A stretch of 64,000 nucleotides of DNA from Escherichia coli (GTDB lineage Bacteria > Pseudomonadota > Gammaproteobacteria > Enterobacterales > Enterobacteriaceae): the NCBI RefSeq assembly GCF_017348835.2, contig NZ_CP071375.1, one strand, 5' to 3'. This document shows, one piece after another, positions 60,732 through 61,724 of this stretch. Positions within the stretch are counted from its first letter, which is position 1. Every line of letters begins with the position of its first letter. Under the pieces are notes generated by a model that was not told the origin of the DNA, did no database searches, and worked only from the letters and a program-made list of their open reading frames with translations. Both the position numbers and the translations under genes were made by a program.

Positions 60732-61724
60732 TTGGCTACAATGAAAGATGTTGCCCGCCTGGCGGGCGTTTCTACCTCAACAGTTTCTCACGTTATCAAT
60801 AAAGATCGCTTCGTCAGTGAAGCGATTACCGCCAAAGTTGAAGCGGCGATTAAAGAACTCAATTACGCGCCATCAGCTCTGGCGCGTAGCCTCAAACTCA
60901 ATCAAACACATACCATTGGCATGTTGATCACTGCCAGTACCAATCCTTTCTATTCAGAACTGGTGCGTGGCGTTGAACGCAGCTGCTTCGAACGCGGTTA
61001 TAGTCTCGTCCTTTGCAATACCGAAGGCGATGAACAGCGGATGAATCGCAATCTGGAAACGCTGATGCAAAAACGCGTTGATGGCTTGCTGTTACTGTGC
61101 ACCGAAACGCATCAACCTTCGCGTGAAATCATGCAACGTTATCCGACAGTGCCTACCGTGATGATGGACTGGGCTCCGTTCGATGGCGACAGCGATCTTA
61201 TTCAGGATAACTCGTTGCTGGGCGGAGACTTAGCAACGCAATATCTGATCGATAAAGGTCATACCCGTATCGCCTGTATTACCGGCCCGCTGGATAAAAC
61301 TCCGGCGCGCCTGCGGTTGGAAGGTTATCGGGCGGCGATGAAACGTGCGGGTCTCAACATTCCTGATGGCTATGAAGTCACTGGTGATTTTGAATTTAAC
61401 GGCGGGTTTGACGCCATGCGCCAACTGTTATCACATCCGCTGCGTCCTCAGGCCGTCTTTACCGGAAATGACGCTATGGCTGTTGGCGTTTACCAGGCGT
61501 TATATCAGGCAGAGTTACAGGTTCCGCAGGATATCGCGGTGATTGGCTATGACGATATCGAACTGGCAAGCTTTATGACGCCACCATTAACCACTATCCA
61601 TCAACCAAAAGATGAACTGGGGGAGCTGGCGATTGATGTACTCATCCATCGGATAACCCAGCCAACTCTTCAGCAACAACGATTACAACTTACTCCGATT
61701 CTGATGGAACGCGGTTCGGCTTAG
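60732..61724 (+). CDS. rbsR: LacI-family ribose operon repressor
   Basis: 330-aa [33 protein letters not shown]… (HTH). Confidence 0.95.

Follow-up and report, generated by a model that had tools for sequence, protein, structure and literature searches.

Gene arrangement at the rbsR/hsrA junction

The window, a stretch of 64,000 nucleotides of Escherichia coli DNA, contains a site at which two genes of opposite orientation share their 3' ends. The gene on the plus strand, rbsR, is the final gene of the rbs operon, encodes the LacI-family ribose repressor RbsR and ends with the stop codon TAG at 61722-61724. The gene on the minus strand, hsrA, encodes the DHA2-type MFS transporter HsrA and ends with the stop codon TAA at 61690-61692. 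It closes the yieP-hsrA operon, whose structure and conserved location, flanked by an rRNA operon and by rbs, have been described (PMC11340327). An 801-nt query around this junction of the E. coli chromosome is matched by 5414 of 5426 complete genomes. The features at the junction are as follows:

60732..61724, plus strand: rbsR coding sequence, 330 aa (ORF list, K-12 and PGAP annotation)
61690..63117, minus strand: hsrA (yieO) coding sequence, 475 aa (ORF list, K-12 annotation)
61690..61724, both strands: shared segment, 35 nt, phase (123:132)
61693..61722, minus strand: hsrA codons 466-475, C-terminal extension (80 orthologue tails, junction DNA, family profile end at 465)
61690..61692, minus strand: hsrA stop TAA, complement of the rbsR Leu320 (CTT)/Thr321 (ACT) junction
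61721..61724, minus strand: CTAA tetranucleotide, complement of the rbsR TAG with a TAA out of the hsrA frame (junction alignment)

The shared segment comprises ten full rbsR codons, two nucleotides of an eleventh and the stop codon, as the translations of both ends agree in showing. In the phase (123:132), codon position 1 of rbsR lies opposite position 1 of hsrA, position 2 opposite position 3 and position 3 opposite position 2, and not one site of the segment is synonymous for rbsR and hsrA both. Moreover, the hsrA TAA requires that the Leu320 codon of rbsR is CTT or CTC.

The two proteins enter this segment very differently. In RbsR, Pfam assigns residues 3-48 to LacI and residues 170-329 of 330 to Peripla_BP_3, and as the latter match reaches residue 329, the overlapped rbsR codons fall within the conserved ligand-binding domain. 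In HsrA, Pfam MFS_1 covers residues 17-406 of 475 and the match to the NCBIfam model NF007799 (MdtD subfamily), which scores above the cutoff, stops at residue 465, so that the residues encoded in the overlap lie beyond every family profile. Codons 466-475 of hsrA are missing from the orthologues with a short overlap and, where present, encode the conserved pattern K-P-x-x-x-P-S-E-x-E. By sequence comparison, the overlap is a ten-residue appendix on the C-terminal tail of HsrA, which is encoded antisense to well-conserved RbsR codons. Besides the 475-aa form, HsrA variants of 421-432 and 455-465 aa are found in E. coli and Shigella, which may be truncations or alternative gene calls.

A sequence-only reading of the window had described a convergent 35-nt overlap of rbsR and hsrA at 61690-61724, and the ORF list and the translations bear this out. 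The same reading had supposed that the overlap is rarely annotated. This is wrong, because the K-12 RefSeq coordinates (rbsR 3938227..3939219, hsrA 3939185..3940612) carry the identical 35-nt overlap, and the PGAP annotation of strain PE164, which is identical to the window, likewise contains it. An annotation artefact was ruled out, since both ORFs are supported by homology and there is no earlier in-frame stop; orthologues are found at 80-97% identity in 80 species. It is thus already known that the two genes overlap, and what is added here is the evolutionary history of the overlap and evidence for a dual-coding constraint. We consider it probable that rbsR-hsrA is an ordinary convergent overlap of two genuine and already annotated protein-coding genes.

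The pair shows the defining features of a convergent overlapping gene pair, i.e., opposite-strand ORFs with homology support that share their 3' ends. As in the convergent pairs analysed by Lillo & Krakauer 2007 (PMC2174442), real genes on opposite strands share less than 50 nt at their 3' ends, the phase is (123:132), relatives have a 4-nt stop/stop overlap, and one stop has moved downstream into the neighbour. In that analysis, the 4-nt stop/stop class is the commonest among convergent overlaps, many of which are 4 nt long because the two stops interlock, while overlaps longer than 4 nt mostly have the phase (123:132), in keeping with a displaced stop (PMC2174442). For E. coli, 75 convergent overlapping pairs have been counted (Huvet & Stumpf 2014, PMC4161906).

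Overlap lengths across the Enterobacteriaceae and the origin of the long form

The junction was compared in 80 Enterobacteriaceae loci, with one genome per species. In all 80, rbsR and hsrA are convergent and abut tail to tail, while the length of the overlap differs:

35 nt overlap: 34 species
4 nt overlap: 26 species
2 nt gap (-2): 7 species
9 nt overlap: 6 species
53 nt overlap: 5 species
24 nt overlap: 1 species
3 nt gap (-3): 1 species

The long forms of 35 or 53 nt thus occur in 39 of 80 species, and the remaining 41 have an overlap of 24, 9 or 4 nt or a gap of 2-3 nt. Long forms are found in only two clades of the gene tree, one with Escherichia, Intestinirhabdus, Citrobacter and Salmonella and the other with Enterobacter, Leclercia and Lelliottia. 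The junction is short in every other lineage, including Buttiauxella, Franconibacter, Siccibacter, Kosakonia, Phytobacter, Kluyvera, Raoultella, Pluralibacter and others.

The short and long forms are distinguished by reading frame, as can be seen from the spacing between the conserved His-Lys codons of hsrA and the complement of the rbsR stop. This spacing is 2 nt in the 4-nt forms, which are interlocked stops (TTAA, CTAA, TTAG or CTAG), 0 nt in the 9-nt forms of Kosakonia, and 1 nt in the 35-nt forms, with 7 nt in Enterobacter corresponding to 1 nt plus two extra codons. All three antisense phases are therefore found at this one junction in different genera, which sets it apart from the usual convergent pairs. 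Most long forms retain the tetranucleotide CTAA in the junction alignment, with its TAA now out of frame, and the CTAA at 61721..61724 probably survives from the interlocked stop/stop that is common to most other genera. In the loci with a 53-nt overlap, which belong to Lelliottia, Huaxiibacter and one Enterobacter MAG, the usual stop of rbsR is lost and six codons are added (...RGSVSAGGDL*); here a stop has been displaced a second time, independently of the first.

Displacement of a stop into the neighbouring gene is reflected in the 0-, 1- and 2-nt frame states and in the TAA relic, with its direction taken from the tree. We infer that the spacer-free abutment is ancestral and the 35-nt overlap derived, a polarity that depends on the rooting of a neighbour-joining tree of the two proteins RbsR and HsrA, which was rooted on Buttiauxella and contains taxa from the Enterobacteriaceae only; in the protein database, the best 120 matches all belonged to this family. 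On this tree, two gains of the long form are as parsimonious as one gain followed by one reversal, and if the root were placed beside the Escherichia clade, the long form would be ancestral and would have been lost twice. The sequence-only reading had called the overlap probably ancestral. This holds for the tail-to-tail abutment and does not hold for the 35-nt overlap, which is restricted to the two clades. It had further named an earlier end of one of the two ORFs in homologues as a finding that would remove the overlap; hsrA is indeed shorter in 40-41 of 80 species, though not within Escherichia.

The 35-nt form most likely goes back to a 1-nt indel that shifted the frame of hsrA within its A-rich final codons, ahead of the former stop. 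The stop of hsrA would thus have been bypassed by a frame change, unlike in the usual stop displacement, which proceeds by point mutation of the stop codon. Across the Enterobacteriaceae, the rbs and yieP-hsrA operons meet end to end without a spacer, and in Escherichia/Citrobacter/Salmonella as well as in Enterobacter/Leclercia/Lelliottia the last codons of hsrA are read in a changed frame. This frame extends hsrA by about ten codons, which lie opposite the conserved codons for the C-terminus of RbsR, until it ends at a TAA built from the Leu-Thr codons of rbsR. The resulting decapeptide would form a short cytoplasmic tail past the last transmembrane helix, which probably does not represent a new functional domain but is tolerated and under mild selection. 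The antisense frame used by hsrA contains 24 stops in the 330 codons of rbsR, i.e., about one per 14 codons. A run of ten codons after a frame change is therefore typical, and its length does not go beyond chance.

Evidence for a dual-coding constraint in the shared segment

The constraint on the shared segment was assessed from a codon alignment of rbsR, in which ten sequences carry a 2-codon indel, by counting third-position changes on the tree by parsimony, with the last 11 codons taken as the overlap. In the long clades (35/53 nt), the last 11 codons show 3.36 changes per codon vs 7.29 in the rest of the gene, corresponding to a sliding-window percentile of 1.6. In the short clades, the respective values are 9.64 and 9.48, and the percentile is 52. 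A Fisher test on the third-position counts yields an odds ratio of 0.45 (p = 2.3e-5), a value that refers to 11 codons and to lineages that are not fully independent. The reduction is seen separately in each of the two long clades, and the only window that is lower there than the overlap window is the one at the translation start at the 5' end, which is low in all clades. Since the third-position rate of rbsR in the overlap is about 45% of that in the rest of the gene in the long clades and unreduced in the short clades, the shared segment appears, from these substitution patterns, to be under a real dual-coding constraint where the long overlap exists.

The same contrast is found at individual codons. 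Third-position diversity at rbsR codon -11 is 0.10 in the long clades vs 0.68 in the short clades. The non-preferred codons CTT and ACT, which make the hsrA stop and the terminal Glu, have diversities of 0.10 and 0.05 in the long clades compared to 0.68 and 0.31 in the short clades. Read from the side of hsrA, the constrained positions correspond to K466, P467, P471, S472, E473 and E475 of HsrA together with the stop, while residues 468-470 and 474 vary. Conservation of the stop codons across the Enterobacteriaceae, which the sequence-only reading had proposed to check, is likewise divided: the hsrA stop lies at the same site, as TAA or TGA, in 40 of 40 long-form loci (38 species, K-12 and PE164), and elsewhere hsrA ends earlier. 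Loss of this stop would add only 16 codons.

These observations have to be weighed against the explanation that the overlap is only nominal, with the ten hsrA codons representing a neutral read-through tail and the apparent constraint an artefact of sampling or codon usage. We judge this to be unlikely. In its favour, the extension has the length predicted by chance, the ten codons lie outside every family profile, three middle residues vary freely, and half of the genera manage without the extension. A neutral tail does not account, however, for third-position change of rbsR being halved in both long clades and not at the same codons in the short clades, for CTT and ACT being almost invariant in the former and variable in the latter, or for a stop that is fixed at one site in all 40 long-form loci although its loss would add so little. 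For a sample of 11 codons, this argues for translation of the HsrA tail and for mild selection on it, if only against its becoming longer still.

A further step would be to regard the tail as a functional short motif, serving for example the stability of the transporter or the binding of a partner, and the spacer-free junction may in addition couple ribose-induced rbs transcription to repression of yieP-hsrA. We consider this improbable. If either the functional tail or the coupling were true, the locus would be a small and, in evolutionary terms, recent instance of coding sequence that arose de novo, with regulation as a side effect.

Transcript ends and regulatory readings of the junction

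As there is no intergenic DNA between the two genes, an intergenic terminator is impossible. A scan for intrinsic terminators and promoters from 60700 to 63200 gave neither at the junction, and no hairpin resembling a terminator up to about 350 nt from it. Folds around the junction were not more stable than those of shuffled sequences on either strand (z = -1.59 and -0.88), and the consensus fold of 27 species reached only -1.6 kcal/mol, with no conserved structure and no covariation at the junction. An Rfam search of 59000-64000 returned no matches at E<=1. The curated Term-seq table of Adams et al. 2021, covering three growth conditions, contains no 3' end within hsrA or on its antisense strand, and its single entry for rbsR is internal and near the 5' end of the gene (PMC7815308). 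Neither rbsR nor hsrA is mentioned in the supplementary tables of a SMRT-Cappable-seq study (PMC6131387).

For Rho-dependent termination, regions sensitive to bicyclomycin have been mapped in K-12, and their positions were converted to the window with an offset of 3,877,495. Two of them lie on the minus strand in this part of the chromosome:

61428, approximate peak (K-12 3938923), minus strand: Rho-dependent (bicyclomycin-sensitive) termination region (PMC7815308 supplementary file 2)
62786 (K-12 3940281), minus strand: Rho region internal to hsrA (Adams et al., PMC7815308)

The first was reported with a score of 2.78 and p = 7.6e-6 in one growth condition (Adams et al. 2021, PMC7815308). Its peak is reached 262 nt past the hsrA stop, on the strand antisense to rbsR, and this position is coarse because the score uses 800-nt windows. 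This resembles the termination by Rho inside a neighbouring gene that was described in the same study, in that a bicyclomycin-sensitive region follows on the minus strand past the hsrA stop and modestly C-rich, G-poor stretches are found 120-180 nt past it. It differs in that the region is documented on the hsrA-side strand only and is not accompanied by a discrete mapped 3' end (PMC7815308). On the plus strand, no Rho region is reported from the rbsR stop to 3947193 (PMC7815308). In 80-nt windows 120-160 nt past the hsrA stop, the fraction of C is 0.29-0.33 and that of G 0.20, and in windows 100-160 nt past the rbsR stop the fractions are 0.28-0.31 and 0.20-0.23, which in both cases is a modest skew that makes these stretches candidates at most for rut-like RNA. 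The second region, inside hsrA, has a score of 2.16 (p = 6.7e-5), so that part of the yieP-hsrA transcription may end before the overlap. In the absence of a spacer, the transcripts of each operon would be expected to terminate within the opposite gene, for the most part through Rho as soon as they are no longer translated, and the antisense overlap of the transcripts would be a by-product, with any regulatory effect of it hypothetical.

Near the 5' end of rbsR, the plus strand carries a perfect hairpin of 8 bp, ATCGCTTC-GTCAGT-GAAGCGAT, at 60805-60826, which lies 4 nt upstream of the curated Term-seq 3' end mapped to K-12 3938325 (window 60830). Also inside rbsR, a Rho region that responds to bicyclomycin, with a Rho score of 3.77, has its peak at 3938387 (window 60892). 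Together, the hairpin, the 3' end and the Rho region suggest that transcripts terminate prematurely, or are trimmed at the 3' end, about 100-160 nt into rbsR, which would limit the rbs transcription that reaches the overlap. Further upstream, the small RNA RbsZ (K-12 3937045..3937278; window about 59550-59783, plus strand) shows a very strong 3' end in Term-seq data at 3937278 and gave no Rfam 15 match in 59000-64000 at E<=1.

The sequence-only reading had also stated that transcripts of each gene must enter the other gene. This was correct, and the pair is indeed listed on the basis of RNA-seq data among the 165 convergent excludons of E. coli MG1655 (ExcludonFinder, NAR 2025, PMC12288877). 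Mutual 3'-end interference, which the same reading had put forward as a possibility, stands as a hypothesis. The pair is an excludon nominally, by overlapping RNA-seq coverage, and it departs from most members of that list, which are mostly 3' UTR overlaps of genes that are on average 95 nt apart, while rbsR-hsrA has no intergenic region. In addition, 146 of the 165 listed excludons have predicted terminators embedded in the neighbour (PMC12288877), whereas our scan of rbsR-hsrA revealed no terminator-like hairpin.

Whether the arrangement is a selected convergent excludon, in which ribose-induced read-through from rbs lowers hsrA and the reverse, by collision of RNA polymerases or cleavage of the duplex by RNase III, is a separate question, and we hold such a device to be improbable. 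The overlapping coverage is present in at least 50% of 58 RNA-seq samples of MG1655 and excludon pairs in general show higher synteny (PMC12288877), the spacer-free adjacency is kept in 80 of 80 species, and minus-strand transcription runs about 260 nt into antisense rbsR before it is terminated by Rho, all of which would fit with selection for mutual interference. However, genera differ freely in how long their CDS overlap is, and the Term-seq 3' end and the Rho region in the 5' part of rbsR suggest that some rbs transcription stops before the junction. Furthermore, given the CDS overlap, an overlap of the transcripts is inevitable and its detection therefore says nothing on function. We found no report in the literature on rbsR-hsrA of mutually exclusive or antagonistic expression or of RNase III duplex processing. 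To our knowledge, no functional link is known between the use of ribose and HsrA, which also counts against such a device.

That the shared segment is a bidirectional terminator or a programmed collision site of RNA polymerases for both operons is highly improbable: convergent pairs in E. coli often use bidirectional terminators and head-on collisions at stem-loops can terminate both transcripts (bioRxiv 10.1101/2022.10.23.513370), but the absence of a terminator-like hairpin within about 350 nt, the unremarkable stability of the folds on both strands, the consensus fold of -1.6 kcal/mol lacking covariation in 27 species and the lack of curated Term-seq 3' ends at the junction in three growth conditions leave the model without the stem-loop it requires and without mapped ends, and it is largely refuted.

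The significance of the overlap is small, since it is annotated in the reference genome, belongs to the commonest convergent class and is already catalogued as an excludon. The locus is nevertheless a tidy teaching example of a stop displacement that makes new C-terminal sequence, with the relic stop still visible and a measurable dual-coding constraint, and it raises the narrow practical question of where the transcripts of two operons end that have no intergenic DNA between them. Concerning nomenclature, thousands of E. coli genomes carry hsrA under the PGAP name "mdtD / multidrug transporter subunit MdtD", because HsrA passes NF007799 (458.6 bits vs a cutoff of 426). The name mdtD normally denotes a gene of the mdtABCD operon, and the curated name of the gene in K-12 is hsrA.
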